A DNA stretch of 64,000 nt from Ignavibacteriaceae bacterium. GTDB taxonomy: Bacteria; Bacteroidota; Ignavibacteria; Ignavibacteriales; Ignavibacteriaceae. Of this stretch, positions 34,518 to 60,375 are shown piece by piece. The stretch is taken from assembly GCA_020848375.1 (NCBI GenBank), contig JADLAF010000022.1, positions 10,663-74,662 of the forward strand, given 5' to 3'. The notes below the pieces were generated by a model. It did no database searches and had not been told where the DNA came from. It worked only from the letters and a program-made list of their open reading frames with translations. The position numbers and the translations under genes are program-made. Position 1 is the stretch's first letter, and every line of letters begins with the position of its first letter.

Positions 34518-35228
34518 ATGCTTTATGTTGCTGCAACCCCTATAGGTAATCTTGAGGATATAACACTCAGAGTCATTCGACTACTTAAAGAAGCTGACCT
34601 TGTCCTCTGCGAGGATACCCGTGTGACTGGTATTCTCCTTAAACATTTTGAGATTCCGCATAAAGAGTTTATTGTAATCAATGCCTTTAATGAAGCGAAA
34701 AATCTTGATTGGATTATCGGGAAAATAGCTCAGGCAAAAATTGCAGTGCTTGTTTCGGATGCAGGTACTCCGGGTATTTCAGATCCAGGAGTTCGGCTGG
34801 TAAACGCGGCCAGAACAGCCGGAATTGAAATTGTTGCTCTCCCGGGTCCCTCTTCTGTTACCGCGGCCCTTTCAATTGCAGGAATTCCCACTGACTCATA
34901 TCTTTTCGAGGGATTTCTCCCTCTTAAAAAAGGAAGACAAAAGAAATTGAAGGAGATTGCAGAAATCAATTCTACTATCGTTCTTTTTGAATCAAGCCAT
35001 AGGATTGAAAAGTTGCTAAGTGAACTTCATCTGTATATACCAGACCGTTTAGTTCTGGTGATGCGTGAAATTACAAAAAAGTTTGAAGAGACATGGGAAG
35101 GATATCCCTACCAGCTAAAGGAATCATTCCTATCTAAAGTGAGCAAGGGTGAGTTTGTTGTTCTGATTGCAAAGAAGGGATTTAGACGATCAGACGGAAT
35201 TGAATTTACACCTCCTGAACAGCTATGA
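34518..35228 (+). CDS. rsmI: 16S rRNA (cytidine1402-2'-O)-methyltransferase
   Basis: 236 aa. The N-terminus LYVAATPIGNLEDITLRVIRLLKEADLVLCEDTR and the motif SDAGTPGISDPG are typical of RsmI. Confidence 0.85.
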   Translation: MLYVAATPIGNLEDITLRVIRLLKEADLVLCEDTRVTGILLKHFEIPHKEFIVINAFNEAKNLDWIIGKIAQAKIAVLVSDAGTPGISDPGVRLVNAARTAGIEIVALPGPSSVTAALSIAGIPTDSYLFEGFLPLKKGRQKKLKEIAEINSTIVLFESSHRIEKLLSELHLYIPDRLVLVMREITKKFEETWEGYPYQLKESFLSKVSKGEFVVLIAKKGFRRSDGIEFTPPEQL

Positions 35229-35931
35229 AATAATAATCGTTCACAATTGTTTGTATTGCGGTAATATCCGGTTTTAGTGAAATGCCCAGCCGTTTGCTGA
35301 TTAATTCTGCTGTCTTTTCTACTAAATCAGAGTCGCCTTGCCGGTAAAGTCCGGTTTTCACACGGTCAATAACTTCCTTTATCAGCCGAATTTCTTCATC
35401 ATGTAACAATATAACTTCAGGGTAGGTAACTTTGTATGAGGGAGGAAACTTCATTATATATTGCCCGCCGGTCAGTCTTTTTAACGGGAGATGAACCACT
35501 GTTGTACCGGCAGCGAAATCCCCCATCCTCTGACCCCTTCCCGTTACCAGATAGGTTAAGATTGCAAGCCCCCCAAATGTAAAACTGATATCCACAAATC
35601 TTGTAACCCACCTGAGGAAATATGATGTAAATGAAGGTGAAGAACCGTCAAGGCGGATAACTTTTACCTTCAGCATCATTTTTGCCGGACTCTGACCGTT
35701 AAAAAAGTATTCAAACAGCAAATCATAAAAGAAAAGAGGTAAATAAAAAATTATACCTGCCGTGTAAGACAGATCTCCGACAAAGAACTGATTCAGCATA
35801 AAAAAGACACTGATAATGTAAATAGTTATTACAGCAGCATCAATAAACCATCCGGCTATTCTTAGACCGAGAGACGCACACTCGAAGTTAATTTTTACAT
35901 TCTGAGTCGTATCAATTTGTACAGTGCTCAT
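35206..35931 (-). CDS. RDD-family membrane protein
   Basis: 241 aa. It has the RDD-type arrangement (GLRIAGWFIDAAV ... three TM helices ... GQRMGDFAAGT) plus a soluble C-terminal tail. It is the last gene of the MoxR cluster. Confidence 0.65.
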   Translation of the reverse strand: MSTVQIDTTQNVKINFECASLGLRIAGWFIDAAVITIYIISVFFMLNQFFVGDLSYTAGIIFYLPLFFYDLLFEYFFNGQSPAKMMLKVKVIRLDGSSPSFTSYFLRWVTRFVDISFTFGGLAILTYLVTGRGQRMGDFAAGTTVVHLPLKRLTGGQYIMKFPPSYKVTYPEVILLHDEEIRLIKEVIDRVKTGLYRQGDSDLVEKTAELISKRLGISLKPDITAIQTIVNDYYFIAVQEV

Positions 35932-35949
35932 ACACCTGCCTGGTTCATC

Positions 35950-37281
35950 TTATAACATTCCTTTTTTCTTGAACTCAATATACTTACTCAGAACATCAGT
36001 GTTTAATGATTCAGGGGCAGTCAGAATTGCAGGAATTCCGCGCAGTTCGAGTTCCTTAACAATTCTGAGTTTCTCGGCAGAAAAGCGAAGTATAGTCTCT
36101 TTCAGAAGTAAATCTTCTACACTAAGAGGAGTATCATCAAGTGCACGGCGGACTTCTGTGTTTTCAAAAAAGATTACTGTGACCAGATGATATTTTGCGA
36201 GCCGTATTATATACGCAATTTGTCTTAGTAGCGAACCGGGAGTTTCAAAATTGGTATAAAGAAGTACCAGACTTCTTTGCCGGACTCTTGAAAGGAAATA
36301 AGCTGAAAATGATTCAAAATCTGTCTCACCAAATTCAGTAGTTACGCTATAAAGAGAATCATTTATTATCTGAAGATGTTTTTTACTGTTTTCAGCGGTA
36401 ATCAACGAAGTTTTTCTCTCATTGATAAGCCCAATCCCCGCGCGGTCCTGTTTGAGCATTGCAATGTCGGAAATCATCAGCGAAGCATTCACTGCATAAT
36501 CAATAAGCCGCATGCCGTTAAAAGGCATCTTCATCACCCGACCGCAGTCAATAATCGAATAAATCTGTTGTGAAATTTCATCAGTAAAATGATTAACCAT
36601 AAGTTTGTTTCGTCTGGCAGTTGCTTTCCAGTTTATACTGCGTAAATCATCACCCGGGACATAATCCTTTATCTGCTCAAATTCCATTGAATGGCCAATT
36701 CTTCGAACTTTTTTCATTCCGCTTACCAGAACCTTCTCATTCACAGCAGTCAGTTCATATTTCTTGAGGTGCAGAAACGACGGATAAACTTTTACGCTCT
36801 CTTCAGTACCAAAGCTGAATCTGCGCCTGAATAACCGGATCGGACTGTGAAGAAAAACTCGTGTAAGTCCAAAAGAATACTCCCCTCTCTGAACCGGTCT
36901 CATGGTAAATTCAGCAGACTTTGATTCTCGCCCGGCTAAAAATAAATCTTTTCTGATGTCACGTCTTTGAAACTGAGCCGGTATTTCATCAATCAATGTA
37001 ACGAAGATTTTTCTTGCTGTCAGGTTCTCCAGAATTATTTGATACACATTTTCATCACCGTTTGAAAACCGTGCCGGTAGTATTCTTTTCCCTAAAATCT
37101 GTTCATCTGAAACAAAAAGGTGTAATACCTCAGCCGTTATAATAGTAAAAACTATCACTGATATTACATGGCCAAAGAAAACCGGCTGATTAAAAATATA
37201 CAACACAACCCATGCAGCAGCCAAAGAGCAGAGAATCAGGAAGAAACGCGTATTAACGTAAATCTGAGAAAAATATCTCAT
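35950..37281 (-). CDS. DUF58-family protein (vWA-like, MoxR-associated)
   Basis: 443 aa with two N-terminal TM helices. The hallmark DUF58 block is DYVPGDDLRSINWKATARRNKLMVNHF. The start overlaps the MoxR stop by 1 nt. Confidence 0.8.
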   Translation of the reverse strand: MRYFSQIYVNTRFFLILCSLAAAWVVLYIFNQPVFFGHVISVIVFTIITAEVLHLFVSDEQILGKRILPARFSNGDENVYQIILENLTARKIFVTLIDEIPAQFQRRDIRKDLFLAGRESKSAEFTMRPVQRGEYSFGLTRVFLHSPIRLFRRRFSFGTEESVKVYPSFLHLKKYELTAVNEKVLVSGMKKVRRIGHSMEFEQIKDYVPGDDLRSINWKATARRNKLMVNHFTDEISQQIYSIIDCGRVMKMPFNGMRLIDYAVNASLMISDIAMLKQDRAGIGLINERKTSLITAENSKKHLQIINDSLYSVTTEFGETDFESFSAYFLSRVRQRSLVLLYTNFETPGSLLRQIAYIIRLAKYHLVTVIFFENTEVRRALDDTPLSVEDLLLKETILRFSAEKLRIVKELELRGIPAILTAPESLNTDVLSKYIEFKKKGML

Positions 37282-38234
37282 CAGCGGGGGACTTCAATCC
37301 GGTCTATTATTAACTTAATCAGATCATCCGGCTTAAGCCCTTCCATTTCCTTCTCAGGTGACAATATTATCCTGTGTCTGAGTGCAGGCAATGCCACTGC
37401 TTTAATATCATCGGGAATGATGTATGGTCTCCCCTGCAAAATAGCGTATGCCTTTGCCGACCTCATAATTGAAATAGATGCTCTAGGGGAGCCGCCTAAA
37501 ACTATATCTCGGCTTTTTCTTGTCGCACTTACGATTGAAGAAATATAACCGGCAATTTTTTCGTCAATATAGATGGATTCCACTTTATTTCTGATAACTG
37601 CAATTTCCTCAATAGTGATAACCGGGTTAATCTGGCTTAGTTTGTCCACGGCGGAAATACTCTGATAATTCATCAGAATCTGAATTTCTTCTAAGTCTGA
37701 GGGGTAATCAATAAGTACCTTAAAAAGAAACCTGTCTAATTGTGCTTCTGGTAACCGATAGGTACCCTCCTGCTCTATAGGGTTTTGTGTTGCGTAAACA
37801 ATGAAAGGAGGAGGCAACTTATACGTTGTGCCATCGACCGAAATTTGTTTTTCTTCCATTACTTCGAAAAGAGCGGACTGGGTTTTAGCCGGTGCCCGGT
37901 TAATCTCATCAATGAGAATGATATTGGAGAACAGAGGTCCCTTTCTGAAGAAAAAATCTGATTTAACTGAATCAAAAATCATAGTACCTATCAAATCACT
38001 TGGCATAAGATCCGGCGTAAACTGAATACGGCTGAAATCCGCTGAAATAGTTTTTGAAATACACTTTGCAAGTAATGTTTTCGCAATTCCTGGCACACCT
38101 TCAATAAGGATATGTCCGTCAGCAAGAAGTCCGGTTATTAACTGTTCGGTAATTTTTTCCTGTCCGACTATAACTTTACTGATTTCTTTTTTCAGACGGT
38201 CAAGAGTTTCAAATACGAGATCTTCTTTTTGCAT
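37281..38234 (-). CDS. MoxR-family AAA+ ATPase
   Basis: 317 aa. It has VVGQEKITEQLITGLLADGHILIEGVPGIAKT (Walker A), ILIDEINRA (Walker B) and ATQNPIEQEGTYRLPEAQLDRF. Confidence 0.9.
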   Translation of the reverse strand: MQKEDLVFETLDRLKKEISKVIVGQEKITEQLITGLLADGHILIEGVPGIAKTLLAKCISKTISADFSRIQFTPDLMPSDLIGTMIFDSVKSDFFFRKGPLFSNIILIDEINRAPAKTQSALFEVMEEKQISVDGTTYKLPPPFIVYATQNPIEQEGTYRLPEAQLDRFLFKVLIDYPSDLEEIQILMNYQSISAVDKLSQINPVITIEEIAVIRNKVESIYIDEKIAGYISSIVSATRKSRDIVLGGSPRASISIMRSAKAYAILQGRPYIIPDDIKAVALPALRHRIILSPEKEMEGLKPDDLIKLIIDRIEVPR

Positions 38235-39294
38235 ATATGCCTGTTAGTTTATAAAAATTATCAATTTTTAGAATGAGTGATTTTATCTGATCACGGGGTT
38301 TTTCAATATTTTTTAGCTTTTCAAACTCTTTTTCTATTTGCATATAAAGCAGCCCTGCCTGGAAGTTTTCAGTTTTCACCAGTGCCTCATTCTTTTCCAT
38401 GAAAATATTTCCTGTCATTCTGAAATGTGCTGTAACCCTCGATGAAAAAGACTCGAATAACACATGGATATAATTCTTATCCCTGAATTGGTGCTTTCTC
38501 AGAAGCGCAATTCTCTTATAATACTCCATCGAAGTGTTGGCAAATGGCTTTATTACTGGAATGATTCTCTGTTCCCTTTTCCCATAAAAAAAGATAAAAA
38601 GAAAAGCAGCAAACAGAAGCAAATAATAGGCCCAGCTCAGATGCGGCTCCGAAAGAATATACCGGAGCGGAGTCTGAATCATTATTTTACCGGTCTTGTA
38701 ATACTCGTCCCAAACAATACTCTTTTCCGGCAGGAAAGCCATTGATTTGAAAGCAAAATCGGCAGCTTCCTTTTCGGTCATATAATAATTTGTAAACCCG
38801 ATAGGAAAGAGATGTACAAAAAGTTTGCCTTCCCCAAACTTTTTAGAAAAATAGACCGGCTCATTCAGATTATTTCTCGCGTAAATCTCAATTCGTGATA
38901 AATCTGTTCTTTCATCCAGAGATACCCCCGGATAAATATACTTTGACGCAGGGTAACCACCGTAATTAGTAAATTCAGAAGTTTCAAATTTAATCGAATC
39001 CCAATGTGAACCCTGATAATAATTTTTGAAAAAAATCTCAGCAGCTTTTTCAAATTCGTCTGAGAATACAAATGCTGAAACAAACACCGTGCCACCACCT
39101 CTGATGAATTTCATCAGACGGTTCATGTCAAATTCATCAGGTTCGTATGTGTCGTTAATGAAAAGGTACACACCTGGCTTTTTAAGAGTGTCTTTTAGTG
39201 TTTCATAAATCGTCCTGGAAGAATATTGAATGGTATTTTCTGGAAATACATACCTGAGGTTGTCCTCAATTATTCTACATCCATACGGAAGCAC
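38209..39294 (-). CDS. DUF4350-like membrane-associated protein (5' end uncertain)
   Basis: 361 aa from the GTG at 39294. It has a GGTVFVSAF block and a late TM (WAYYLLLFAAFLFIFFY), as in DUF4350 proteins of MoxR clusters. The reading frame stays open upstream to 39435 and encodes a signal/TM-like segment with no ATG, GTG or TTG start. Confidence 0.5.
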   Translation of the reverse strand: MLPYGCRIIEDNLRYVFPENTIQYSSRTIYETLKDTLKKPGVYLFINDTYEPDEFDMNRLMKFIRGGGTVFVSAFVFSDEFEKAAEIFFKNYYQGSHWDSIKFETSEFTNYGGYPASKYIYPGVSLDERTDLSRIEIYARNNLNEPVYFSKKFGEGKLFVHLFPIGFTNYYMTEKEAADFAFKSMAFLPEKSIVWDEYYKTGKIMIQTPLRYILSEPHLSWAYYLLLFAAFLFIFFYGKREQRIIPVIKPFANTSMEYYKRIALLRKHQFRDKNYIHVLFESFSSRVTAHFRMTGNIFMEKNEALVKTENFQAGLLYMQIEKEFEKLKNIEKPRDQIKSLILKIDNFYKLTGIYAKRRSRI

Positions 39295-39416
39295 ACTTTG
39301 GGAGGTAAAATCAAAACGCCAGTCTGATTCAACAGTACTTACTGAACTCCTTAAAAGCAGTAGAAGAATAAGAAGAGCGGATATTATATAAAGAAACTTT
39401 CCTTTAAGCAGAGCAG

Positions 39417-40049
39417 TCAGGATACCTCCCCTGTATTAACCATTTTTCTGAAGTGATTCAGGTCGTTAGAATTAACCTCAAAACCACCATACCAGGAATT
39501 CTCAAATAGCAATGTGACATCTATAAAAACTGCATGAAGCTGGCTCCCGCGAAGTTCTGAAGCATACTCCCAGTTTGTTTTTTTGCCATCCAGTGAGAGG
39601 AGTTTTCTTTCTCCCAGTTTTCTGAGGAACTTGATATAAAGCACCCTTACTACCCCGCGGTTGTTCCCTTCAGACATATACATTGCTTCGAGTTTATCAA
39701 GGTCAGTTAAACTTACGTCATCGAGAACAAGGGAAACCTCCCCAGCTTCTGACTGAGAAAAATCTGTTTTTGAAGTAAAAAGGTACAATTTTTCTTTCAG
39801 AATATAAAAGACTCCGAATGCAATTAAGATAAGTGCAGCTATCTGATAATAGTTTCCATCTTTGCCAAATATGGTTGAGCTTAACAGCCAGTCAATAAAA
39901 TTAAGAAAAGCATTAACAAGTTCTGAAAAAAATGATTCAGGTCTCTGAGGTGCTCTATCATAGAGATACTTTGTATCATTTAGATAACCATCCATAACCT
40001 CCTTAGGAGGCAGGCGCAGTGAGTAGGTGTTATTCAAATGATTTATCAA
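39417..40049 (-). CDS. DUF4129-like membrane protein
   Basis: 210 aa with a central TM (YQIAALILIAFGVFYIL). The C-terminal block (WEYASELRG...LFENSWYGG) resembles the DUF4129 signature. Confidence 0.5.
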   Translation of the reverse strand: MINHLNNTYSLRLPPKEVMDGYLNDTKYLYDRAPQRPESFFSELVNAFLNFIDWLLSSTIFGKDGNYYQIAALILIAFGVFYILKEKLYLFTSKTDFSQSEAGEVSLVLDDVSLTDLDKLEAMYMSEGNNRGVVRVLYIKFLRKLGERKLLSLDGKKTNWEYASELRGSQLHAVFIDVTLLFENSWYGGFEVNSNDLNHFRKMVNTGEVS

Positions 40050-40084
40050 GTAGATTTGTCTGAGTAATTGTTTCTGATATCAAA

Positions 40085-40909
40085 CTATGATTTACCAAAT
40101 TTTTCCTCCATTTGATTAATCAAAACATCCCCCCTCTTCATTTCCCTTAGGTTAAAATACTGCATATAAAAACCTGTCCAGAGAATTATTGAACTCAGGT
40201 ATGAAAAGCGATTTAACAGTTCAAAGAATTGCAGAGCAGCTACTTCAAACAGCTCGGGCGACTGTGATGTATCATGAAGTCCGTAGATTATATTGAAAAT
40301 GGTTGATGGTATTTCAAAGATTATGGAAGCGAAGAACTGAATGAGACCGAGTGCCATAGAAAGCCAGAATGTCTTCCAATAATTACGTTTTAAAAGCTGA
40401 TGCGCTTGTTTGATTGAATCGAGTATTGATGACTCATCCACCATGAGGTTTACTGTGGCTATTGAATACAATACATAGAGCAGAAGTGCGGGGATAAATA
40501 AGAAAATGACTGAAAAAACAGAGGCGATAAAAAACATTACTGAAAGAATGAGGAATGGCAGACTGAAAGATCTGATGTATCTGATGATTGCGACTGGGGT
40601 TATTGTAACTTTTCTGAGATGCAGTGTGAGTCCGCCAAATATGAAGACCGATATCAGTACATAAGAAAACACAGAGCCGGCCACTGAATAATATGACCCC
40701 TCCAGGAGATAATCAAAAAGACTTTTTCCACTGCTGAAATAATCATAATTGAAATAGGATTCAGCCAGCATGATTACCAAAAGCAGAGGCAACACAAGCT
40801 TTATCAAAGGAAGAATAAGAGTACGGAAATTTGCAGAGACGAATGAAATCGAATCTGAAATTATTTTGTCAGTAGTACGAAGTCCGGTTAATTCAATATC
40901 TTTATTCAT
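40085..40909 (-). CDS. Hypothetical polytopic membrane protein
   Basis: 274 aa with about 6 hydrophobic helices and no family recognised. It overlaps the upstream gene by 8 nt. Confidence 0.55.
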   Translation of the reverse strand: MNKDIELTGLRTTDKIISDSISFVSANFRTLILPLIKLVLPLLLVIMLAESYFNYDYFSSGKSLFDYLLEGSYYSVAGSVFSYVLISVFIFGGLTLHLRKVTITPVAIIRYIRSFSLPFLILSVMFFIASVFSVIFLFIPALLLYVLYSIATVNLMVDESSILDSIKQAHQLLKRNYWKTFWLSMALGLIQFFASIIFEIPSTIFNIIYGLHDTSQSPELFEVAALQFFELLNRFSYLSSIILWTGFYMQYFNLREMKRGDVLINQMEEKFGKS

Positions 40910-41858
40910 ATTTCCTTAAAGCAACCTTAGAGGGATAAAGGTAAAAGTAGAAGACTGAAAAACAAAGGGACGAGAGAATAATAAGAAGCTTTACCGACCA
41001 GTGCATCCCTGTATATCTCGTTATAAATGACTCGATTATTCCGGCTGTTATTATGAGCGGTGCAATTCCCAGAATCATCTGAGCCCCATTTTTTGCATTA
41101 GCAACAAATGAAGTTACCCTTGAATAAGTCCCGGGGAAAAGAAGTCCTTTTCCGATAACAAATCCGGCTGCTCCGGCCACCGTTATTGATGCTATCTCAA
41201 TAGTTCCATGAAGCCAGACTATTAGCATAGCTTCACCAAAGACATTCTCCTGATATAAAAAACTGAAAAAGGTACCGATCATCACTCCGTTAACAAATAG
41301 CACGTATATGCTGCCAAAGCTGAAGATAAGACCGCCGGCAAAGGCAAGGAACGAAACGCGCAGATTATTCAGCGTAATACCAAGAAACATCTCCGACTGA
41401 TTCATGCTTTTATAAACAGCCATCGGGTCCCCCTTTTCAATATTCTCAAGCGTCATTGCAACATATTTATCTCCAAGTATAAGTCGCACAAAATAATTAT
41501 CATTAAAAGTTGAAAGCGCACCTATAGTCACTGCAACCATGAGCAGAAGAAAGGCAAGTATGATTTCTTTTCTTGCCCTGAAGAAAACCAGCGGAAGCTC
41601 CTCAGTGAAAAATCGCTTTATATAACCACTCTCGTTCCAGGTGCGTTTATAAATAATTTCGTATAGCGAGCCGGCCAAAGCATTCAGGTATTTTTCCACA
41701 CTGGATTCAGGGAAATACGTTTTTATATAAGCCAGATCATCCGTCACCTCAATAAAATATGCTGATAGTGCTTCAGGATCCCTGTCCTTCCCGCGAAGAG
41801 CTTCTTCAATTTTTTTCCATTTCTCCTGGTTAATTTTCAGGAATCTAGCTTCTTTCAT
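40902..41858 (-). CDS. SpoIIM-like (DUF95) integral membrane protein
   Basis: 318 aa. A cytoplasmic N-terminal helical domain is followed by about 5 TM helices with the SpoIIM-type pattern (FFTEELPLVF.., NNLRVSFLAFAGGL, HGTIEI). Confidence 0.55.
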   Translation of the reverse strand: MKEARFLKINQEKWKKIEEALRGKDRDPEALSAYFIEVTDDLAYIKTYFPESSVEKYLNALAGSLYEIIYKRTWNESGYIKRFFTEELPLVFFRARKEIILAFLLLMVAVTIGALSTFNDNYFVRLILGDKYVAMTLENIEKGDPMAVYKSMNQSEMFLGITLNNLRVSFLAFAGGLIFSFGSIYVLFVNGVMIGTFFSFLYQENVFGEAMLIVWLHGTIEIASITVAGAAGFVIGKGLLFPGTYSRVTSFVANAKNGAQMILGIAPLIITAGIIESFITRYTGMHWSVKLLIILSSLCFSVFYFYLYPSKVALRKYE

Positions 41859-41859
41859 C

Positions 41860-44800
41860 TCAGAAAAACGCCCGTATTTCGCTTCTTGCCAGATTTATCA
41901 TCCTGCCGCCGCCGAGTGATCTGCCTTCATAATATGCTGTTGCCTGTAAATTCAGTGATATCCTGTAATCAAAATTAAAACGAATAAAATAGTTCTTACC
42001 ATTTGAATTTCCGCCAGTTAATTCATAAGGCAGATAATTTTGCGTTTGTTGAGTCAGTAACTCTATTCGCTCGGCCTCAATCCGAAGCCGGCCAGAACCA
42101 GTTATAGCATAGTTAATCCTTAGAGTCAGAGAATTAACATCAAGAATTGTGGGAACTGGAGGATAAACATCCTCACTACGTGCAACTTTTACCTTAAATC
42201 CAGTCTCAATGTTCCTGTAAGGTCTATAGCTGAAATCTGTTGAAAAAGATTCAGTCCTGATCATCCTGTTTCTGTTAAGTGCAGCAGCAGAGGACAAATT
42301 GTCATGAAGCGCTGAGACTTCAGTTGTGTTACTCACCTCATTGATCAGCCGCATTTTTGCCTGTAAACTAATCTCCCTCCCAAACCCGTTTTCAGTACCT
42401 CCGCTGAACTGATTCATACTTTCACGCTGATTAAAGCTTCCTCTGAAAGACAGGTCACTGCTGCTACCAAAAAGAAAAATATCCTGTTGGAAATAGTAAA
42501 TCCCCCGAATGGTAGTGAGCGGACTGCGGAAAACTGAGAAATCGAGCAAATAAATTTTTCCATAATCAGAAATAGTTGAGTTTTCCTCCATTCGCAATGA
42601 AGTTTCTGTCGAAAATTGGCTAAGCAAATTACCAAAAAATCCTTCTGAAGAAACAAGATTTAGTGAATTTAATCTGATACGCGGCAATAAATTAAGAGTG
42701 ATAACCGGATAAAGCTCATCAGAGGGAACCGTCAGGAGAATATAGTCACCGTCGTATGCAGTCAGCTCAAATTCACCCTCATCACGGAGTCCGTTGTTAT
42801 TCAGATCGCCTCTGTAACGGTACCCCCCTCTGCCTGTTTCAACTTGCACAAAGACCCTTTCTGGCTTGGCGGACTTTTTTGTTGTCCCTTCATAAAACAA
42901 ATCGCCCTCGATATTTCCGTTATCGAGCCGGAAACGTGATGACGATTTAACCAGAAAAACATCATTGTCAGCCCGGTTAAGAGAACGGAACTCATCAGTA
43001 TATTTTTTTCTTCTGAAAGTAATTGAGGAAACCGAATTAAATACACTTCCCCCTGTAACTTGCAGTTCTCCTCCATAGCCGGAAGAAACAGATTCCTTAC
43101 GCAATGAACCCTCAAGTGGTGAGTAGTCTGTCCTTCCAATCAAATGAAGCCCAGCAATTAGAAACTCGTATGGGTTAATCTTAATTCCGGGTGAAAGTTC
43201 ATAAAATCGAAACGAGCTGCCTTTAACTGAATCACTTCCCGGTGTGGTTTCTGATCTGTCTTCATAAAGAAAAGGTATTTCCAGATTAAATACCCCTGCC
43301 TTCAGTCCTGCTTGCAATTTTTGCTTTAACCAGTGTCCTTCAGTCAGGTGATAAGTAGTTGAGTTGAAATCGGTATTGGATGAAAAATTTACCTTTTGAT
43401 CACGGTATTCGGTGATATTTGTAATCCGCTCTGTAGAAAAATCATCACCTCGGCGTAATACAGAATATCCCAACTGATTTGAAAACGCAGATCCTATTTT
43501 ATAATCCATTCTGCCCTCTCGCAAAAACTCATCAGCCGAACCAGAGCCCGCAATATTAAAATCTCTTTCAAATTCTACTGAATTCACTCTGTCAGGGGCA
43601 ACATACCGTTCCTCAACAAATCGCTCTCTCAGGTAAAACGAGACCGATTCACCACTTCCCCCAAAAATGGTAAAGGATTGAGGTGAGTAACGAAGTGAGA
43701 GATTCCGTGCATATCCTCCGTTATCACCATCATCGAGTGATGAAAAGCGGTTTCTGTCAGTAAGTGACCCTGATATTTCCGCGGATAAAATTAAATCACT
43801 TATTGAAAACTCAGCGATAAAGTTACCGCTATGAGTAAGTGAAGGCAATGGAAGAAAGATAATAGGAAGATAGGATCCCAGCCCTTTGCCCGCATACGTA
43901 AAATTCCCGATTCCCGCGCGCCGGTAATCCCCCTTGAAATCTCCGACAAAAGTAAATGTGACATTATATACTGCCTCGGTATCAAAAGGATTATAAATAT
44001 ATATAGTTTCACTAATGCCGTTTATCAGAGTATCACGGCTGTGATAAAACCCTCTGCGAAAGCCAAGAGAATCAGGTGCCGCCAGGACTGCACCTGATCT
44101 GACCGCTGAAAAGCGGTCATCTCCGGCCAGACGAAGCAGTTCCTTGTCAGAATCGCTCAGAGACAGATCAATCGGTGAATCCTGATCATCTCCCTCGCGT
44201 ATATATTGCAGACCAAGTGCCAGATTATTCATCACCTTTGAACGGGCTCCGGCAAGAAATATATTCCTGGTATATCTCCTGTCCGAGTATTCAAAATCTA
44301 TGACAATACGGCTTGCAGTAGTTATAATAAACTGCGGATTAAAGGTAATTTCTGCCAACGAGTAATCAATTGTATATTGATGCATTTCCCCCCGCTTTAA
44401 TTCGTTTCCGTCAACAAAAACTTTTTCTGTTCCCGCAATAACAATGATATCCCTTTCACCATTCACGCCGCCTAATCTGTAAGGACCCTGAACACCATCT
44501 AAACCTGAAAAACTCTGGGAGTTAAACTTCCCTCGCGCACTTGCAAACCCGAAATACGCTGAATTGCCGTCATACTGCGCCTCAGCCAAAAATCCCTGCA
44601 GTTTTCTTTTAATGCCTCCAAATTCACCATTTTTTTTCTGTAATTCGTAATCACCAAAAATTGCGGTAAAATTTTTGTGTTTAAGCTGTATGAAAACCTT
44701 ATCCAGTTCCTCAAGACTTTCGGTCGTCCCCTCCGGCTGGATCGGTGTATTTTCGTCTGTAAGTGCCGCACTAATTTCTATATCATCCGTAAGGTATCCT

Positions 44801-45300
44801 GAAAGCTCAAGCCGCATACCGCTCTGAAGGGAAAAATCCCTATTTGTGCCCACAGTAAAACCCCTATAAATTGAGCCGCTTCTCTGAATTCCCTTTCCGA
44901 AAATGGACTCTTCCACCGAAAGTGTTTCACCTTTACTAACGACATAGACAGAATCTTTTAGAATATCATCGTATCGCCTGACCAGCGTCCTTTTCTGATA
45001 AACTTGTTTCAGAGTAATGAGAAGGGAAGAATACCTGACAATAATGGTATCGAAGACTGATATCATAACTGAATCAGCCAGACTGAATTGAAGTTGACTG
45101 TAGTTTATTTCATAAGCCCCATTGCCCAAATTCCTGCCCCTTAAACACACCGATTCGCTGCCTGGAATAATGTTGAAATACTTAAGTTTATAAGAATTTA
45201 GGGGATTAAATAGCAAAGTATCAGCCCTCAGCTCAGAATTATACTCCTGGGCTAAGAGCGAAACCATAAACAGAACGAATATTATGAGGACTTTTTGCAA
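41860..45300 (-). CDS. Large predicted outer-membrane beta-barrel protein, function unknown
   Basis: 1146 aa with a TTG start and signal peptide MQKVLIIFVLFMVSLLAQE. It shows pervasive alternating-hydrophobic beta-strand patterns rich in Y, G, S and N. The C-terminal beta-signal-like tail ends ...RSEIRAFF. No family is recognised by eye. Confidence 0.6.
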   Translation of the reverse strand: MQKVLIIFVLFMVSLLAQEYNSELRADTLLFNPLNSYKLKYFNIIPGSESVCLRGRNLGNGAYEINYSQLQFSLADSVMISVFDTIIVRYSSLLITLKQVYQKRTLVRRYDDILKDSVYVVSKGETLSVEESIFGKGIQRSGSIYRGFTVGTNRDFSLQSGMRLELSGYLTDDIEISAALTDENTPIQPEGTTESLEELDKVFIQLKHKNFTAIFGDYELQKKNGEFGGIKRKLQGFLAEAQYDGNSAYFGFASARGKFNSQSFSGLDGVQGPYRLGGVNGERDIIVIAGTEKVFVDGNELKRGEMHQYTIDYSLAEITFNPQFIITTASRIVIDFEYSDRRYTRNIFLAGARSKVMNNLALGLQYIREGDDQDSPIDLSLSDSDKELLRLAGDDRFSAVRSGAVLAAPDSLGFRRGFYHSRDTLINGISETIYIYNPFDTEAVYNVTFTFVGDFKGDYRRAGIGNFTYAGKGLGSYLPIIFLPLPSLTHSGNFIAEFSISDLILSAEISGSLTDRNRFSSLDDGDNGGYARNLSLRYSPQSFTIFGGSGESVSFYLRERFVEERYVAPDRVNSVEFERDFNIAGSGSADEFLREGRMDYKIGSAFSNQLGYSVLRRGDDFSTERITNITEYRDQKVNFSSNTDFNSTTYHLTEGHWLKQKLQAGLKAGVFNLEIPFLYEDRSETTPGSDSVKGSSFRFYELSPGIKINPYEFLIAGLHLIGRTDYSPLEGSLRKESVSSGYGGELQVTGGSVFNSVSSITFRRKKYTDEFRSLNRADNDVFLVKSSSRFRLDNGNIEGDLFYEGTTKKSAKPERVFVQVETGRGGYRYRGDLNNNGLRDEGEFELTAYDGDYILLTVPSDELYPVITLNLLPRIRLNSLNLVSSEGFFGNLLSQFSTETSLRMEENSTISDYGKIYLLDFSVFRSPLTTIRGIYYFQQDIFLFGSSSDLSFRGSFNQRESMNQFSGGTENGFGREISLQAKMRLINEVSNTTEVSALHDNLSSAAALNRNRMIRTESFSTDFSYRPYRNIETGFKVKVARSEDVYPPVPTILDVNSLTLRINYAITGSGRLRIEAERIELLTQQTQNYLPYELTGGNSNGKNYFIRFNFDYRISLNLQATAYYEGRSLGGGRMINLARSEIRAFF

Positions 45301-45377
45301 CTTTTAAGGATAAAAATAACCTGCGAAAGATACTTATAAAGAGGAAAAAGAGAGGAATTTTAAGAGGATAATTCATG

Positions 45378-45423: not shown

Positions 45424-46656
45424 TTATTCGTGACGGAGGGCTTCGATAGGATCAAGATTTGACGCTTTGTAGGCCGGATAGGTGCCAAAAATAACACCCA
45501 CCAGCACACACATGCTCAGACCAATAATGACCCAGTCAACCGGCACGGCTACCTGTGCGTTTAATTGCATACCGGCGAGGATACCGATGCTTACACCCGA
45601 AACTATGCCGATAATTCCGCCAAAAAAACAGAGAAAAATTGCTTCAGAAAGAAATTGAAGCAAGATATTCTGTTTTTTTGCTCCGAGAGCTTTTCTAATG
45701 CCAATTTCTCTGGTTCTCTCGGTCACCGAGACAAGCATAATATTCATGATCCCGACACCGGCTGCCAGAAGAGCGATAATAGAAATTACAAGTGCCCCTA
45801 TTTTAATTCCTGAAGTAATCTCATTCACCTGACCGATTAGAGACTCATTCGAGAAAATATGGAAATTGTTTTCTTCTCCCGGAGCCAATTTTCTTATTGT
45901 CCTCATATAACCAATTGCAGATTCAATTACCTGATTATACTCTTCTTTGGTAGCTGTCATAACGGTGATATTTACTGACCGGCTTCTTCTGCCGTATATC
46001 CCCTGAAACGTAGTTAATGGTGTAACAACATAATTGTCACGCGAACTACCAAACAAACTCGGCTGCGGCTCCATAATACCAATTACTCTGAAAGGATAGC
46101 CATCCACCTTAACGTACTGTCCAATCGGATTGATATTCTGAAATATTTTATCGACCACTTCCTTACCAAGTAAACAGACATTTCCAGAGTAATTAATATC
46201 AGCATCCCTGAACTCTCTGCCAAATTCAACACTCCAGTTGTTTGTTTTCATAGCATCAAGCGTGATGCCCGCAACCTGTATATTAGGATTGGTTTCATTA
46301 TTACCAAACTTAACTACTTTACCAAACTGCCACTGCTCTGCACCGATAAATTCGGCTGATTTAAGCATTTCATCCAACCGAAGGTAATCCTCATAAGTAA
46401 TATCAGGACGGTTACGATCTTTCCGTCTGCTGCCAGGTCCGCCCATCTGAATATTATCCCACTTCTGAATCTGGAATGTATTTTTATTAAGCTGAGAGAA
46501 TCCGCTTTCAATTGTAGTCTGAAGCATGGTGATAATTGTCATAATAACAATAATGGAAAAAATTCCGACAACAACACCAAGAATAGTTAACGAGGTTCTG
46601 AGTTTGTTGGCTTTGATTGACTGTAGCGCCATCGAAACTATTTCTTGTAAATTCAT
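45424..46656 (-). CDS. ABC transporter permease, FtsX/MacB-type (paralogue 2)
   Basis: 410 aa. A TM1 helix and large periplasmic domain are followed by three C-terminal TM helices with the FtsX motif (SVTERTREIGIRKALGA). Confidence 0.85.
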   Translation of the reverse strand: MNLQEIVSMALQSIKANKLRTSLTILGVVVGIFSIIVIMTIITMLQTTIESGFSQLNKNTFQIQKWDNIQMGGPGSRRKDRNRPDITYEDYLRLDEMLKSAEFIGAEQWQFGKVVKFGNNETNPNIQVAGITLDAMKTNNWSVEFGREFRDADINYSGNVCLLGKEVVDKIFQNINPIGQYVKVDGYPFRVIGIMEPQPSLFGSSRDNYVVTPLTTFQGIYGRRSRSVNITVMTATKEEYNQVIESAIGYMRTIRKLAPGEENNFHIFSNESLIGQVNEITSGIKIGALVISIIALLAAGVGIMNIMLVSVTERTREIGIRKALGAKKQNILLQFLSEAIFLCFFGGIIGIVSGVSIGILAGMQLNAQVAVPVDWVIIGLSMCVLVGVIFGTYPAYKASNLDPIEALRHE

Positions 46657-47900
46657 TATTCGTACCTCAGAGCTTCAACAGGATCAAGTTTTGCAGCAGT
46701 ATAGGCGGGTGCAAGTCCGGCTACAACTCCAGTTATCAGAGAAATCATAATAGCAAGAGTTACAGCTTCAAACTGAATTGAAGTAGTTATGAACCGGTCA
46801 ATAAGACTACTAAGCAAAACAGCAAAGAGGAGACCAATTAAACCTCCGAGAAGGCAAATGATTGATGCTTCAAGCAGGAACTGTGAAAGAATTGTTCTTC
46901 TTTTTGCACCGAGAGCTTTTCTCACACCTATTTCCCTTGTGCGCTCCTTCACAGATACAAACATGATATTCATGATACCAATAGCACCGACAAAAAGAGA
47001 AAGACCTGTAATAAAGAAACCTGCAACCTGAATAACTCCTACCGTCTGATTGTAATTATCTAGCAGTCCTTCCTGCTGATTAATGGAAAAATTATTTTCC
47101 TCACCAGATTTAAGCCCCCTTATTTTTCTCATAACACCTTCGGCTTCAATCTTTGTGTCTTCAATGCTGGCGTTGTCCTTTGAGCGGACATTAAAAGTAA
47201 TAGTATTCCGCTGCTCATTGGCAAAGTGCTTAAATATGGTACCCATTGGCATAAAGACCTGGTTATCAGGATTGAAAGCTCCAAGGATGAAACTTCCCTG
47301 CTCAGAGAGAATTCCGACAACGCGATAATTAACACCACCGATTTTAACGGTTTTATCCAATCCATTTCCCATCGGAAAAAGTGATTTTGCGATCTCACTT
47401 CCCAGAACGCAGACATACCTGCTTCCGTTACTTTCTGATTCCGTATAAAACCGTCCAAGATCAAAAGTGAAATTTGTGGTTTTTACATAGTCAGCATTTG
47501 AACCGTTAAGAAACACGTTTTCAACAACTTTATCCCCGAACTTTACATTCTGCCTTGAATTGATAACAGGCGCAACAGCTATAGGAGTCTGGACAAGTTG
47601 CTTAAACTGACTAAACTCATCAAGTGTCATATTTTTCCTGTTGCGAATTTTCCACCAGTCTTCATTAGAAAACCATGCCCATTTATCTATATATAAGACG
47701 TCTGAACCCAGTGCTGAAATACCTGACTGAAATGAGTTATCGATTCCGCGAATGGCCGTACTCATGGTCACTACTGAGGTAATACCAATCACAATACCCA
47801 GCATTGTAAGGATAGAGCGGACTTTATTTGCTCTCAGGGCCTGAAGGGCAATAATCAGTCCTTCTTTGAGTTCATATATGAGCGGTTTTATGTTTTTCAT
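46656..47900 (-). CDS. ABC transporter permease, FtsX/MacB-type (paralogue 1)
   Basis: 414 aa with the same architecture and motif (SVKERTREIGVRKALGA). It overlaps the downstream permease by 1 nt. Confidence 0.85.
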   Translation of the reverse strand: MKNIKPLIYELKEGLIIALQALRANKVRSILTMLGIVIGITSVVTMSTAIRGIDNSFQSGISALGSDVLYIDKWAWFSNEDWWKIRNRKNMTLDEFSQFKQLVQTPIAVAPVINSRQNVKFGDKVVENVFLNGSNADYVKTTNFTFDLGRFYTESESNGSRYVCVLGSEIAKSLFPMGNGLDKTVKIGGVNYRVVGILSEQGSFILGAFNPDNQVFMPMGTIFKHFANEQRNTITFNVRSKDNASIEDTKIEAEGVMRKIRGLKSGEENNFSINQQEGLLDNYNQTVGVIQVAGFFITGLSLFVGAIGIMNIMFVSVKERTREIGVRKALGAKRRTILSQFLLEASIICLLGGLIGLLFAVLLSSLIDRFITTSIQFEAVTLAIMISLITGVVAGLAPAYTAAKLDPVEALRYE

Positions 47901-47906
47901 TATATC

Positions 47907-48638
47907 TCAGGCAGTCTGCTGATTTTCTTCAGTTTTTAACTTTGGGATTGTGCGGTTTTGCACCATTTCATCACTTGATATATAACCATCCTTTAAGCGG
48001 ATAATTCTCTCAGCATGTTGCGCAACAAACTCCTCATGTGTTACCAGGATAATAGTATTACCTGCTGCATGAATCTGTGAAAAAAGATACATAATTTCAT
48101 CACCAGTCTTAGAGTCAAGATTTCCGGTCGGCTCGTCCGCAAGAATAATAGCGGGATTTGTAACTAAAGCTCTTGCAACGGCCACTCTCTGCCTCTGTCC
48201 GCCTGATAATTCATTTGGTTTGTGATGAATTCGGTCAGCCAGACCCACATCAATAAGAGTTCTGGTTGCCCTTTCTTTCCTTTCCGCACTTCCGACTCCA
48301 GCATAGATTAACGGAAGCTCAACATTATGAAGTGCATCCGATCTCGGCAACAGGTTGAAGGTCTGGAATACAAATCCAATTTCACGGTTACGTATTTCGG
48401 CAAGCTCATTGTCACTCATCAGACTGACATTCTTACCTTTGAAATCATACTTACCGCCTGTTGGTGTGTCCAGACAGCCGAGCATATTCATCAGGGTTGA
48501 CTTTCCTGACCCTGAGGGTCCCATAATTGCAACATATTCGTTTCTATTGATGGTGAGCGATACATCGCGAAGCGCGTGAACTTCAACGTCACCAATCTTA
48601 TACATTTTACGAATATGCTCAATGCTGATAATGTTCAT
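47907..48638 (-). CDS. ABC transporter ATP-binding protein (MacB/LolD-type NBD)
   Basis: 243 aa. It has Walker [10 protein letters not shown], the signature LSGGQRQR and Walker B ILADEPTG. Confidence 0.9.
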
Positions 48639-48647
48639 ACTGATACC

Positions 48648-49949
48648 TTAATTAGCGGCCGGTTTTTTCTTGCCGCCGTCTTTGTTTTCAACTTTAACCA
48701 GTTTGCCATTTTCAAGCTCTCTTGAAATTGCGCGGTAGCTGCCTGAAACAACTTCTTCGTCACCGGAAAGACCGGATATTATTTCTATAAAGTTATCATC
48801 GCTGATTCCGGTTTTCACAGAAACGGATTTTGCTTTTCCGTCTGTGACGATAAATACTATTTCCTGAGGTGCATCACCATTGCCATTTTTCTTTTCCGAA
48901 ACCTGAAGATTTGATTCTTCTTCCTCGGGCTCTGGTATCTGTTCGATACGAGCAGTTACACTTGGTATGGGTACACTAACAACCTGAAATCTTGTCTCTG
49001 TTTCGATATTTGCATTACAGGACATTCCGGGACGAATTTTTTTCTCCTGGGAAAAGATCTTGATTTTTACTTCAAAGTTTATCACCTGATCCTGAGTGCC
49101 AAATCCTGACTGTTTTGCACTGTTGCCAATTTCATAAACCACTCCAAGGAACTCACTTTCACCAAATGCATCAACTTTTACCCTGGCAGTATCGCCATAA
49201 GTGATAAGTGTAATATCATTCTCATCAACATCAACAATTGCCTGCATATTTGAAAGGTCAGCAATCGTCATGATATTTGTTCCTTGTGAAAATCCGCTTC
49301 CTAATACTCTTTCACCAAGTTCAACATTCAGTTGAGTAACCGTGCCGTCCATTGGTGAGACAATGGTAGTTTTATTAAGCTGTTCTAATGCTTCTCTGAC
49401 GGCTGCCTGGCTTTGCGCCACGTTTGCCTCCGCTCCGTTATATAATGAAGACGTGCTCAGATACTGGCTTTTGACCGCTTCGAGCTCTGCGTCACTTGAT
49501 AGTTTTTTTGCATAAAGTTCCTTTGCCCGGTTATAGTCGGAAGTTATCTTGTCTAATTCAGCTTTCCGCGCAGAAAGTGTAGCTTTAGCTGACTGAAGAT
49601 TTGCTTCAGCTCTTTCCTTTGCGGCAAGATATGTATCTGCCTTTATACGAAGAAGTACTGTTCCTTTTTTAATAACATCGCCTTCTTTAACCGGGAGTGA
49701 CACAATTTCACCGGTTACTTCCGGAGTAATAACCACTTTAAAGACCGGATCAATGCTTCCGATAGCAGATACTGTCTGAGTAATATCACGTTTGATAACT
49801 TTTTCAGTCTGAACGCTTATAATTTCCTCTTTATTGCCCTTAACAATAACCAGAATTACCAAGGCAAGAAGCAGCAACCCGATTCCGCCGAATATATAAA
49901 GTTTTTTTCTGGATTTCTTTTTTACATTAATCTCTGTCATCGAGACCAT
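48648..49949 (-). CDS. Periplasmic adaptor (membrane fusion protein, HlyD/MacA-like)
   Basis: 433 aa with an N-terminal TM, a lipoyl-like half-motif, a long coiled-coil hairpin and a beta-barrel domain. It lies between the TolC-like gene and the ABC genes. Confidence 0.8.
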   Translation of the reverse strand: MVSMTEINVKKKSRKKLYIFGGIGLLLLALVILVIVKGNKEEIISVQTEKVIKRDITQTVSAIGSIDPVFKVVITPEVTGEIVSLPVKEGDVIKKGTVLLRIKADTYLAAKERAEANLQSAKATLSARKAELDKITSDYNRAKELYAKKLSSDAELEAVKSQYLSTSSLYNGAEANVAQSQAAVREALEQLNKTTIVSPMDGTVTQLNVELGERVLGSGFSQGTNIMTIADLSNMQAIVDVDENDITLITYGDTARVKVDAFGESEFLGVVYEIGNSAKQSGFGTQDQVINFEVKIKIFSQEKKIRPGMSCNANIETETRFQVVSVPIPSVTARIEQIPEPEEEESNLQVSEKKNGNGDAPQEIVFIVTDGKAKSVSVKTGISDDNFIEIISGLSGDEEVVSGSYRAISRELENGKLVKVENKDGGKKKPAAN

Positions 49950-49952
49950 CCT

Positions 49953-51287
49953 TTATTTATTTTCAAATTTTGATGAGTCAAGCAGTCCAATCTGATACTC
50001 AAGCTGTTCTTTAAGTTTAAGGTAATCAAACTGCGCTGTTATATAACCTGATTGTGCATTCGTGTATTCTGAATTTGCTATCAAAACATTCAGGAGTGTT
50101 GTGGCTCCGAGAAGATACTTCTCCTCTTCAATTTTTCTGTTTTCTGATGCAGCCAGCACGTTGCTCTTCCCGACTTCCAGACGTTTTTCTGATGCCTGAA
50201 GGTCAAGATAATTTTTTAGCAGATCACGTTTAATCTCCCTTTCAAGATCTCGCAGTTCTAACTCTCTGACTGACTTATCAATCTTTGCAAGCTGAACCTG
50301 CTGATCAGTGCTCCACCCGCTGAAGATGGGTATATCAAGTGTAAGTCCGAAAGAATAATTTTTATTTTCAAAAAGGTCACCGGGGCTGCCTGCCTGAGTA
50401 TTAAAACTAAAATTATTCCTTAGTGAAGGAAGATAGCCGGACTGAGCAATGGTAATTGATTCTTCCGCGCTGTTAAGAGAAAGTTTGCTGCTCTTATAAT
50501 CGTATCGGGTCTTGAGCGCCTGATTTACTAAATCATCGAGCTTAAGTCCGCCGATGCTGCCCTCACCCAGCTCCATGCTCAGTGTTTGATCTGCTTTGTC
50601 TTCAAAAGCGTAATCTTCAAAAACATCAATACCGAGGTAGTAGAAGAAATTGCTTTTGAGAGTTTCAAAACTATTCTGGGCCTTAATCACTTCAAGTTCA
50701 GCGTTCCCTAACTTAACCTGCTGCGCATATACATCCGCAATAGTAACCGAGCCAAGGCGGTTTCTTTCCTGAATAATTTCAAAATTCTTCTTGTTCCATT
50801 TCAGATCATCTTCTTTAACAGAAAGAAGTTTTTTTGCAGTAAGAACATCATAATAAGCAGAAAGCGTCTGATAAATTATGTCCTGCTTGAGTTTCATAAA
50901 ATTCATCCTGGCGGCTTCAAGATTACTCTCGCTTCTATCCAGATTAGCATAACTTGCCAGTCCGTCAAACAGTTTCCATGATCCGCCTATTCCGGCTGAG
51001 TAAGTTCTTGAGTCGGTTGAGTTGCTGCCAGAAAGTAACCCTGATGAGTTTGCTGAGCTCTCGTAGCGGTTCCAGTTCCAAGATAGATCCGCACCAATAG
51101 CAGGAAGCAAGGCGCCAAAAGCAGATTTTTTTGCTGCTTCATAAGATTTCAGATTTTCCTGTGACTGAAGAAAGACTGTATTTTTCTGAAGCGCAATCTG
51201 TGTTGCCTGTTCAAGTGTAAGTACCCGTTGTCCGAATGCGCTTGGAGTAATAAGTGCAAGTAACAGCAGGATTCTAAAAAATTTCAT
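49953..51287 (-). CDS. TolC-family outer-membrane efflux protein
   Basis: 444 aa with a signal peptide and a two-fold internal repeat of coiled-coil/beta segments typical of TolC/OEP. It is the first gene of the efflux operon. Confidence 0.8.
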   Translation of the reverse strand: MKFFRILLLLALITPSAFGQRVLTLEQATQIALQKNTVFLQSQENLKSYEAAKKSAFGALLPAIGADLSWNWNRYESSANSSGLLSGSNSTDSRTYSAGIGGSWKLFDGLASYANLDRSESNLEAARMNFMKLKQDIIYQTLSAYYDVLTAKKLLSVKEDDLKWNKKNFEIIQERNRLGSVTIADVYAQQVKLGNAELEVIKAQNSFETLKSNFFYYLGIDVFEDYAFEDKADQTLSMELGEGSIGGLKLDDLVNQALKTRYDYKSSKLSLNSAEESITIAQSGYLPSLRNNFSFNTQAGSPGDLFENKNYSFGLTLDIPIFSGWSTDQQVQLAKIDKSVRELELRDLEREIKRDLLKNYLDLQASEKRLEVGKSNVLAASENRKIEEEKYLLGATTLLNVLIANSEYTNAQSGYITAQFDYLKLKEQLEYQIGLLDSSKFENK

Positions 51288-60349: not shown

Positions 60350-60375
60350 CAAAAAGTAAATCATGAAGGAAAACC

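Follow-up and report, generated by a model that had tools for sequence, protein, structure and literature searches.

We analysed a 64,000-nucleotide stretch of the genome of an Ignavibacteriaceae bacterium (contig JADLAF010000022.1, positions 10,663 to 74,662; hereafter the window), in which eight neighbouring genes encode a giant barrel, here called the outer-membrane protein (OMP), and seven further proteins that include a MoxR ATPase and a DUF58 protein. An open reading frame (ORF) check of the window gave eight consecutive ORFs on the minus strand, running from 45300 to 35206, where a preliminary description of this DNA had placed them (Table 1). From OMP to RDD the junctions are +1, −8, +35, +122 or −4, −26, −1 and +18 nt, and the overlap of the moxR stop with the DUF58 start reads TGATG. 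The gene set and its junctions were thus confirmed by measurement, except that the overlap between the DUF4129 and DUF4350 genes requires a CTG start at 39420 within CTGA. If only ATG, GTG and TTG starts are allowed, a 122-nt gap separates these two genes.

Table 1. Genes and signals of the MoxR/DUF58 gene cluster, with positions counted from the first letter of the window.
Feature	Position	Strand	Remarks
Giant barrel (OMP)	41860..45300	(-)	1146 aa, TTG start
SpoIIM-like polytopic inner-membrane protein	40902..41858	(-)	318 aa; first cassette gene
Polytopic membrane protein, about 5 transmembrane (TM) segments	40085..40909	(-)	274 aa; TM274
DUF4129 membrane-anchored protein	39417..40049	(-)	210 aa, TTG start
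DUF4350 (GldG-like) protein	38209..39294 or 38209..39420	(-)	361 or about 403 aa, by start codon
MoxR-family AAA+ ATPase	37281..38234	(-)	317 aa
DUF58 protein	35950..37281	(-)	443 aa
RDD-family membrane protein	35206..35931	(-)	241 aa; last cassette gene in window
Candidate FCB-type −7 promoter element (TAnnTTTG-like)	45319..45335	(-)	AAGTATCTTTCGCAGGT block, about 19-35 nt upstream of OMP start
Stem-loop	45378..45411	(-)	perfect 13-bp, GGCAGAAATTCAG-N8-CTGAATTTCTGCC, without U-tract, directly after FtsX permease stop

A Pfam profile search supported six of the family calls made earlier, namely SpoIIM, DUF4129, DUF4350, MoxR, DUF58 and RDD, and the 1146-aa and 274-aa proteins had no Pfam or NCBIfam match. 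Among all eight proteins, NCBIfam returned sub-threshold AAA+ matches for MoxR alone and nothing for the rest. By hydropathy, MoxR alone lacks TM segments, and the 1146-aa protein carries a signal peptide. This is in accord with the earlier statement that every product except MoxR belongs to the membrane or envelope. Rfam and tRNA scans had no match within the gene cluster.

We investigated how far the seven genes from SpoIIM-like to RDD, hereafter the cassette, are kept together. Metagenome contigs were scanned with an alignment of the SpoIIM-like protein, which gave 80 cassette loci (L089-L168). The order SpoIIM–TM–DUF4129–DUF4350–MoxR–DUF58 was found in 40 of the 44 loci with 6.3 kb or more of sequence after the SpoIIM start, and two of the four exceptions resemble an ORF in which SpoIIM and the TM gene are fused. 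The MoxR–DUF58 pair was present in 47 of the 80 loci. RDD adjoins the cassette in 59 of them, 54 times divergently and right upstream of SpoIIM and five times in the place that it has in the window, after DUF58. An identical seven-gene order with RDD at the 3' end was seen in a KSB1 genome and a 'Spirochaetes' metagenome-assembled genome (MAG), and the loci L139, L147 and L149 are contigs from human-gut metagenomes. We therefore regard it as highly probable that these seven genes, without OMP, make up a conserved functional unit. The segment 35206–41858 of the window is one copy of this widespread seven-gene cassette, in which the position of RDD is mobile.

Some genomes carry the cassette in other forms. 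In Catalinimonas its halves lie 4 kb apart with sugar genes between them. Another Ignavibacteria genome (L084) has RDD divergent from SpoIIM–TM–DUF4129–DUF4350, with DUF58 8 kb distant, and a Sphingobacteriales genome has the divergent RDD and SpoIIM pair alone at the examined locus. The window copy differs from the others in the 3' position of RDD, which few loci share, in an OMP gene fused upstream, and in a CTG at the DUF4350 position where relatives have ATG. Its RDD placement is closer to the KSB1/'Spirochaetes' layout than to that of the Ignavibacteria genome L084. It may be that the window lineage acquired the cassette or rearranged it.

Next to the cassette, the OMP had been described as a dedicated component. 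The OMP alignment was searched against a set with a single genome for each GTDB species, which yielded 80 further Ignavibacteria loci, in which the OMP is 44-49% identical to that of the window. Cassette genes were present in none of these 80 loci when searched by tblastn with the window proteins and by hidden Markov models (HMMs) of the seven families; 52 of the loci have at least 7 kb of downstream sequence. Likewise, the OMP-family HMM matched none of the 80 metagenomic cassette loci, of which 40 extend 3.5 kb or more upstream of SpoIIM. Elsewhere the OMP gene is followed on the same strand by a conserved block of genes unrelated in function, namely NUDIX (70 loci), a PfkB kinase, an MtnA/eIF-2B-like gene, RecO, HtrA and the chorismate synthase AroC. 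Distant full-length homologues (28-33% identity) have genes for ribosomal proteins, Omp85 and ExbBD as neighbours. In relatives, synteny between the OMP and the cassette is lacking; thus, their adjacency is a lineage-specific rearrangement. The OMP is an independent housekeeping gene outside the conserved system, and the neighbourhood check contradicts the view of it as a dedicated partner.

The fusion of OMP and cassette is limited to the close lineage of the window, in which the barrels are at least 57% identical. In three relatives (L081, L082 and L171, with barrels 77%, 59% and 57% identical to that of the window) the layout is exactly the same, that is, TolC–HlyD–ABC–FtsX–FtsX, where ABC stands for ATP-binding cassette, then OMP, the seven cassette genes with RDD last, and a convergent rsmI. 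Because the eight-gene arrangement recurs in these related genomes, chance does not explain it. The window and L081 share TGAgATG, with a 1-nt gap, between OMP and SpoIIM; in L082 and L171 the two genes overlap in TAATG. A functional link between OMP and cassette could have evolved within this lineage.

The signals in front of the OMP gene were compared among the same four genomes. The intergenic region that contains the FtsX-end hairpin of Table 1 folds as RNA with −25.7 kcal/mol (z = −3.5). Hairpins of unrelated sequence occur at the same position after FtsX in L081, L082 and L171, which suggests that the structure is conserved and the sequence is not. This hairpin is likely a terminator or 3'-end element of the MacAB-type operon that precedes the OMP gene. 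Closer to the OMP start, the AAGTATCTTTCGCAGGT block is identical in the window and L081, and its TATCTTT core is also found in L082 and L171. It is a candidate for the FCB-type −7 element of Bacteroidota promoters, a TAnnTTTG-like sequence. Scans for sigma-70 promoters and intrinsic terminators across the cluster gave counts that were not above those of shuffled controls. The hairpin after FtsX and the conserved block before OMP indicate a separate transcription unit beginning at OMP, and the 1-nt junction is too tight for a promoter between OMP and SpoIIM. As far as the sequence tells, co-transcription of all eight genes in the window lineage is plausible, and a shared function would not be implied by it.

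Each product of the cassette was then studied separately. The SpoIIM-like protein matches Pfam PF01944 at 4e-33 and consists of an N-terminal cytoplasmic helical domain (DUF8413 in newer Pfam) and the SpoIIM domain. More than 5000 homologues were found (FCB group, KSB1 and the 'Spirochaetes' MAG), every one with PF28475 and PF01944. Its AlphaFold2 model is all-helical, with a mean confidence (pLDDT) of 85; a Foldseek search of this model against the PDB returned nothing below E 0.4 and thus no functional lead. Across 26 diverse homologues, invariant polar residues lie in predicted TM helices (H217/E221 in 'HGTxEI', N164-N165, D130 and E276). The pattern hints that the protein may have a site for catalysis or ion binding and be more than a mere scaffold.

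For TM274 the homologue search yielded five close relatives only, because the protein evolves too fast for the word index of the search. Its orthology was established instead with HMMs of positional orthologues, which were also applied to three other cassette proteins; they were made from metagenomic sequences only, with the window lineage excluded, and their matches are full length. The HMM from 70 orthologues matched TM274 at E 2e-40. The orthologues have weak matches to UPF0259, DUF7847 and GPDPase_memb; since the Pfam matches of the protein and its orthologues are weak and sub-threshold (UPF0259 or GPDPase_memb), its family was left unassigned. By its profile match, TM274 is the positional orthologue of the UPF0259/DUF7847/GPDPase_memb-like cassette gene and evolves fast. 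The DUF4129 protein has one clear TM segment and matches Pfam PF13559 at 1.6e-7 and the HMM of its 62 positional orthologues at E 5e-37.

The DUF4350 protein matches PF14258 at 8.8e-8 and the HMM of 57 orthologues at E 9e-85. Its hydropathy gives an N-terminal TM segment or signal anchor, an extracytoplasmic domain, a second TM segment and a cytoplasmic tail of about 120 aa. The reading frame is open up to the CTG at 39420, and the additional stretch encodes the expected N-terminal TM helix (KGKFLYIISALLILLLLL). Orthologues that begin with an ATG at this very spot, within an ATGA overlap, align residue for residue with the N-terminus translated from the CTG. At this position the window has CTG and three relatives have ATG, which in two of the three forms an ATGA overlap of stop and start. 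A purine run, GGGGAGG, lies just upstream of the CTG (39417-39420). The codon represents either rare CTG initiation, or reduced expression, or a sequence variant.

MoxR is the sole soluble cytoplasmic product, without a TM segment. It matches PF07726 (AAA_3) at 5.9e-62 and PF17863 (AAA_lid_2) at 2.1e-22, and both Walker motifs, A (GVPGIAKT) and B (ILIDEINR), are intact in its translation. The N-terminus of the DUF58 protein (PF01882 at 1.4e-15) forms a TM hairpin at residues about 13-57, and a von Willebrand factor A (vWA)-like domain follows. At the position of MIDAS (metal ion-dependent adhesion site), around residue 245, the orthologues have ID[CKSM][GS]R.MKMPF against the canonical DxSxS. 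Metal-dependent binding is therefore doubtful, and the vWA-like domain may not bind metal in the canonical manner, to judge by this motif. The RDD protein matches PF06271 at 2.7e-15 and the HMM of 58 orthologues at E 9e-75. Pairwise identity to distant orthologues is 17-20% for the TM and DUF4129 proteins, about 30% for DUF4350, 34-37% for RDD, 39-43% for DUF58, about 49% for SpoIIM and 52-59% for MoxR.

The OMP itself has a signal-like N-terminus and ends in RAFF; the family consensus ends in RAYF, with an invariant last Phe. Its AlphaFold2 model, from a 54-sequence alignment, has a pLDDT of 74 and is nearly all beta, with about 38-40 long antiparallel strands and a small N-terminal beta domain ahead of the barrel strands. 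Foldseek against the PDB returned outer-membrane barrels only, namely SprA (E 1e-9), LptD, Deinococcus SlpA, SusC and TonB-dependent receptors, with TM-scores of at most 0.30; SprA is the best match, though a weak one. A profile of the OMP had no match among PDB sequences even at E 10. By its predicted structure, the 1146-aa protein is a giant outer-membrane beta-barrel.

SprA is a protein of about 2400 aa with a 36-strand barrel and a SprA_N Pfam domain. The OMP resembles SprA and LptD in having a signal peptide, an aromatic residue at its C-terminus and a model that is all beta, with about 40 strands, but no type IX secretion system (T9SS) or Lpt genes lie in its context. We rejected SprA as its identity, given the length of 1146 aa (half that of SprA), the lack of a Pfam match, the TM-score of 0.26 and the lack of a PDB sequence match. 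LptD was rejected as well, the similarity being that of large barrels in general (TM-score at most 0.30). At 50% identity the family forms 2820 clusters, of which 1828 have E <= 1e-30. Each named member is a "hypothetical protein", and the homologues are nearly all labelled Ignavibacteria, Ignavibacteriaceae or Melioribacteraceae. It is an uncharacterised family of giant OMPs in its own right. Being large, unannotated and predicted to be unusually big, it deserves separate attention.

Parts of the cassette have been described before. Makarova et al. (2015) reported archaeal operons in which DUF4350 (arCOG01314) occurs with a COG0714/MoxR ATPase and a DUF58-type vWA protein (PMC5898192). They found DUF4350 to be GldG-like with a flavodoxin fold by HHpred, proposed on computational grounds that the DUF4350–MoxR–vWA set is a new secretion or membrane-remodelling system, and noted that bacterial SpoIIM homologues adjoin a vWA protein and a COG0714 ATPase (PMC5898192). 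The window resembles the archaeal arCOG01314 system in having a membrane-anchored DUF4350, a COG0714/MoxR and a DUF58-type vWA protein in one operon. However, the archaeal loci carry Ig-like/S-layer proteins, whereas the window cassette has SpoIIM-like, UPF0259-like, DUF4129 and RDD proteins instead. The Ig-like/S-layer families (arCOG02884, PF07760) had no Pfam match in the window cluster or its flanks.

The same gene families are found in mycobacteria. A table for M. chelonae lists consecutively RDD (=Rv3695), SpoIIM (=Rv3694c), DUF58 (=Rv3693), MoxR (=Rv3692), DUF4350 (=Rv3691) and a membrane protein (=Rv3689), so that mycobacterial Rv3689–Rv3695 (MAB_0386c–0392c) is annotated with the families of the cassette (PMC8191103). 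The mycobacterial, FCB and KSB1 neighbourhoods are alike in having the same seven families, and the order is identical in KSB1 and the 'Spirochaetes' MAG. The M. smegmatis SigF regulon was considered as evidence and was not used; its MoxR/DUF58 genes MSMEG_6606–6612 are not adjacent to the RDD gene MSMEG_3254. Our full-text literature searches found no functional study or experiment on cassette members, and the earlier statement that the combination of MoxR, DUF58, RDD, SpoIIM, DUF4129 and DUF4350 has no experimentally assigned function still stands. The further suggestion that this is an undescribed system holds in part: we found no functional study, but the DUF4350–MoxR–vWA core and the SpoIIM–vWA–COG0714 association were described computationally in 2015 (PMC5898192) and Rv3689–Rv3695 has been annotated (PMC8191103).

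MoxR ATPases work as assembly chaperones in concert with vWA partners (cited in PMC11834572, PMC12067865). In the Bat operon (MoxR–DUF58–BatA–BatB–BatC–BatD–BatE), as in the cassette, an MRP-type MoxR is followed by DUF58 among FCB envelope proteins (PMC11834572). However, the vWA proteins BatA/BatB and the tetratricopeptide repeat (TPR) proteins BatC/E are missing from the cassette, MoxR is first in the Bat operon and in the middle of the cassette, and the two sets of partners differ entirely. None of the eight window proteins had a VWA or TPR Pfam match. A second comparison concerns the MoxR–DUF58–transglutaminase triads, of which the bifidobacterial PFNA operon is an instance with MoxR and DUF58 (PMC12067865). 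These triads, including the TgpA type, also couple MoxR and DUF58 to a membrane protein, but the cassette has no transglutaminase core domain in Pfam. DUF4129 is also the C-terminal domain of TgpA-type membrane transglutaminases in such triads. If this link holds, DUF4129 may by analogy be a docking element that the cassette shares with them. RavA–ViaA was rejected as an identification, because the NCBIfam RavA score is 22 bits against a cut-off of 681 and no ViaA is present.

Characterised MoxR–vWA pairs include NorQ/NorD and RavA/ViaA. The best explanation overall, which we consider probable though far from certain, is a widespread seven-gene MoxR/DUF58 inner-membrane cassette with an incidental OMP gene upstream. 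By analogy with such pairs, MoxR and DUF58 would be chaperones that assemble or remodel an inner-membrane complex made by the cassette; this is the most likely mechanism, yet a tentative one that may well be wrong. Six cassette products would sit at the cytoplasmic membrane and MoxR in the cytoplasm. The N-terminal TM hairpin of DUF58 implies that its vWA-like domain lies on the cytoplasmic side, able to meet MoxR, and a MoxR hexamer would dock on this domain. Driven by ATP, the MoxR–DUF58 pair would then assemble, mature or switch the conformation of a complex of the SpoIIM-like, TM274, DUF4129, DUF4350 and RDD proteins. The periplasm-facing domain of DUF4350 would act on the envelope, in remodelling, export or division-linked tasks. 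In the Ignavibacteria lineage of the window, a rearrangement would have put the OMP gene directly upstream, where it probably shares the transcript and keeps a separate function. We infer the physical complex, the direction of action, the envelope role and the substrate.

Several points weigh against this explanation. For the complex, its substrate and its envelope role, no experiment on cassette members was found in the literature. The degenerate MIDAS of DUF58 may mean that it behaves unlike canonical vWA partners. Some genomes split the cassette into an RDD/SpoIIM/TM module and a DUF4129/DUF4350/MoxR/DUF58 module, and therefore the two halves could have separable functions. The tight OMP–SpoIIM junction has been kept although the barrels are just 57-77% identical. 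In the mycobacterial literature, the co-regulation in M. chelonae spans a whole chromosomal region including glpK/glpF and is taken here as adjacency and annotation only (PMC8191103), and the co-immunoprecipitation (co-IP) with Rv0954, discussed below, is a single mass-spectrometry list (PMC8093794).

Two other functions of the cassette are each unlikely in our estimation. Following the model of Makarova et al. (2015), it could be the inner-membrane platform of a novel secretion system, with DUF4350 acting like the GldG of the ABC transporter associated with gliding and T9SS. DUF4350, MoxR and the vWA-like protein are indeed conserved together, and the link of DUF4350 to GldG by HHpred and the secretion model are both published (PMC5898192). 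However, that proposal is purely computational, and the cassette lacks a channel-forming or substrate-like protein, an ABC ATPase or permease, and an Ig-like/S-layer partner. No conserved gene for a secreted cargo was found nearby in the 80 loci.

The cassette could otherwise be a scaffold for division or peptidoglycan remodelling, in which the SpoIIM-like protein recruits wall hydrolases as in the DMP engulfment complex of Bacillus, and MoxR–DUF58 controls assembly; this too has a low probability. The window protein shares the SpoIIM domain with the sporulation DMP complex, where SpoIIM is the scaffold of SpoIID/SpoIIP (PMC5898192). Rv3694c (SpoIIM) and Rv3695 (RDD) were recovered in the co-IP list of the divisome-associated Rv0954 (PMC8093794), and mycobacterial moxR1 adjoins ripAB, MoxR1 being linked to the wall hydrolase RipA (PMC12067865). 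Against this, the cassette neither contains nor adjoins a gene for SpoIID, SpoIIP or another hydrolase in the window and the inspected loci, SpoIID and SpoIIP having been looked for in the window cluster and its flanks, and the argument depends on one co-IP list and on analogy. Ignavibacteria are not known to be endospore formers.

Two further alternatives give the OMP a part. It is very unlikely that the cassette is a MoxR-driven secretion or remodelling machine which secondarily recruited the OMP as outer-membrane outlet in the window lineage; if that were true, the locus would be a natural 'complete' trans-envelope version of the system. At least as improbable is that MoxR powers a single trans-envelope machine, for assembly or remodelling, made of all eight products with the 1146-aa barrel among them, as was first proposed for this locus. 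The tight OMP–SpoIIM junction in the window, L081, L082 and L171 would fit such a machine, as would a transcription unit that starts at OMP, suggested by the hairpin and the conserved upstream motif. The periplasmic domain of DUF4350 could in principle reach an outer-membrane partner. However, OMP and cassette never occur together beyond the close lineage of the window, and the OMP orthologue in other Ignavibacteria precedes unrelated housekeeping genes. The cassette is also found in mycobacteria, which have no classical Gram-negative outer membrane. Synteny has thus largely refuted the proposal. MoxR–vWA biological-conflict systems have reportedly been described by Kaur et al. (2020), but an anti-phage role is hardly credible here: the secondary match of MoxR to PF20030 (bpMoxR, 3.6e-12) and a weak PADLOC match to DolB (1.1e-9) are far exceeded by its AAA_3 match, PADLOC gave generic AAA matches and no defence system, the other seven proteins have no PADLOC match, beta-propeller, effector and other defence proteins are missing, and the rigid gene order and housekeeping-like context across phyla are unlike mobile defence islands.

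With the seven-gene inner-membrane cassette as the preferred explanation, the window holds one more copy of the cassette with an incidental OMP fusion, and not a new kind of system. The cassette is among the more widespread MoxR-associated gene sets of unassigned function, and its range covers FCB-group bacteria, KSB1, Ignavibacteria, human-gut metagenome contigs and mycobacteria including M. tuberculosis (Rv3689–Rv3695). The unit can now be defined more sharply, as seven genes in fixed order with a mobile RDD, and this definition is testable in tractable organisms. Once its function is solved, roles would follow for four or five DUF families and for SpoIIM homologues outside sporulation.

Directly upstream of the OMP gene, at 45424-51287 (-), lies a five-gene tripartite ABC exporter of the MacAB/TolC type, which encodes a 444-aa putative OEP/TolC, an HlyD-type adaptor, an ABC ATPase and two permeases with MacB_PCD and FtsX domains. 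A MacAB-type operon also precedes the OMP orthologue in about 33 of the 80 other Ignavibacteria, with a spacer that varies from 0.1 to 3.5 kb. We do not claim MacAB–TolC as a functional partner of the OMP, in view of the about 33 of 80 genomes, the variable spacer and the terminator-like hairpin between them. Elsewhere in the window, the segment 27091-27894 contains an HtrA-like ORF segment that is 39% identical to the HtrA found after the OMP block in other Ignavibacteria. At the other end of the cluster, the 3' end of RDD overlaps the 3' end of a convergent rsmI-like methyltransferase gene (34518-35228) by 23 nt (35206-35228), and therefore no intergenic room is left for terminators. The overlap in L081 and L171 is similar to that of the window. 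Two tRNA-Leu genes, with CAG and TAG, are located near the ends of the window, at 194-278 and 60268-60350.

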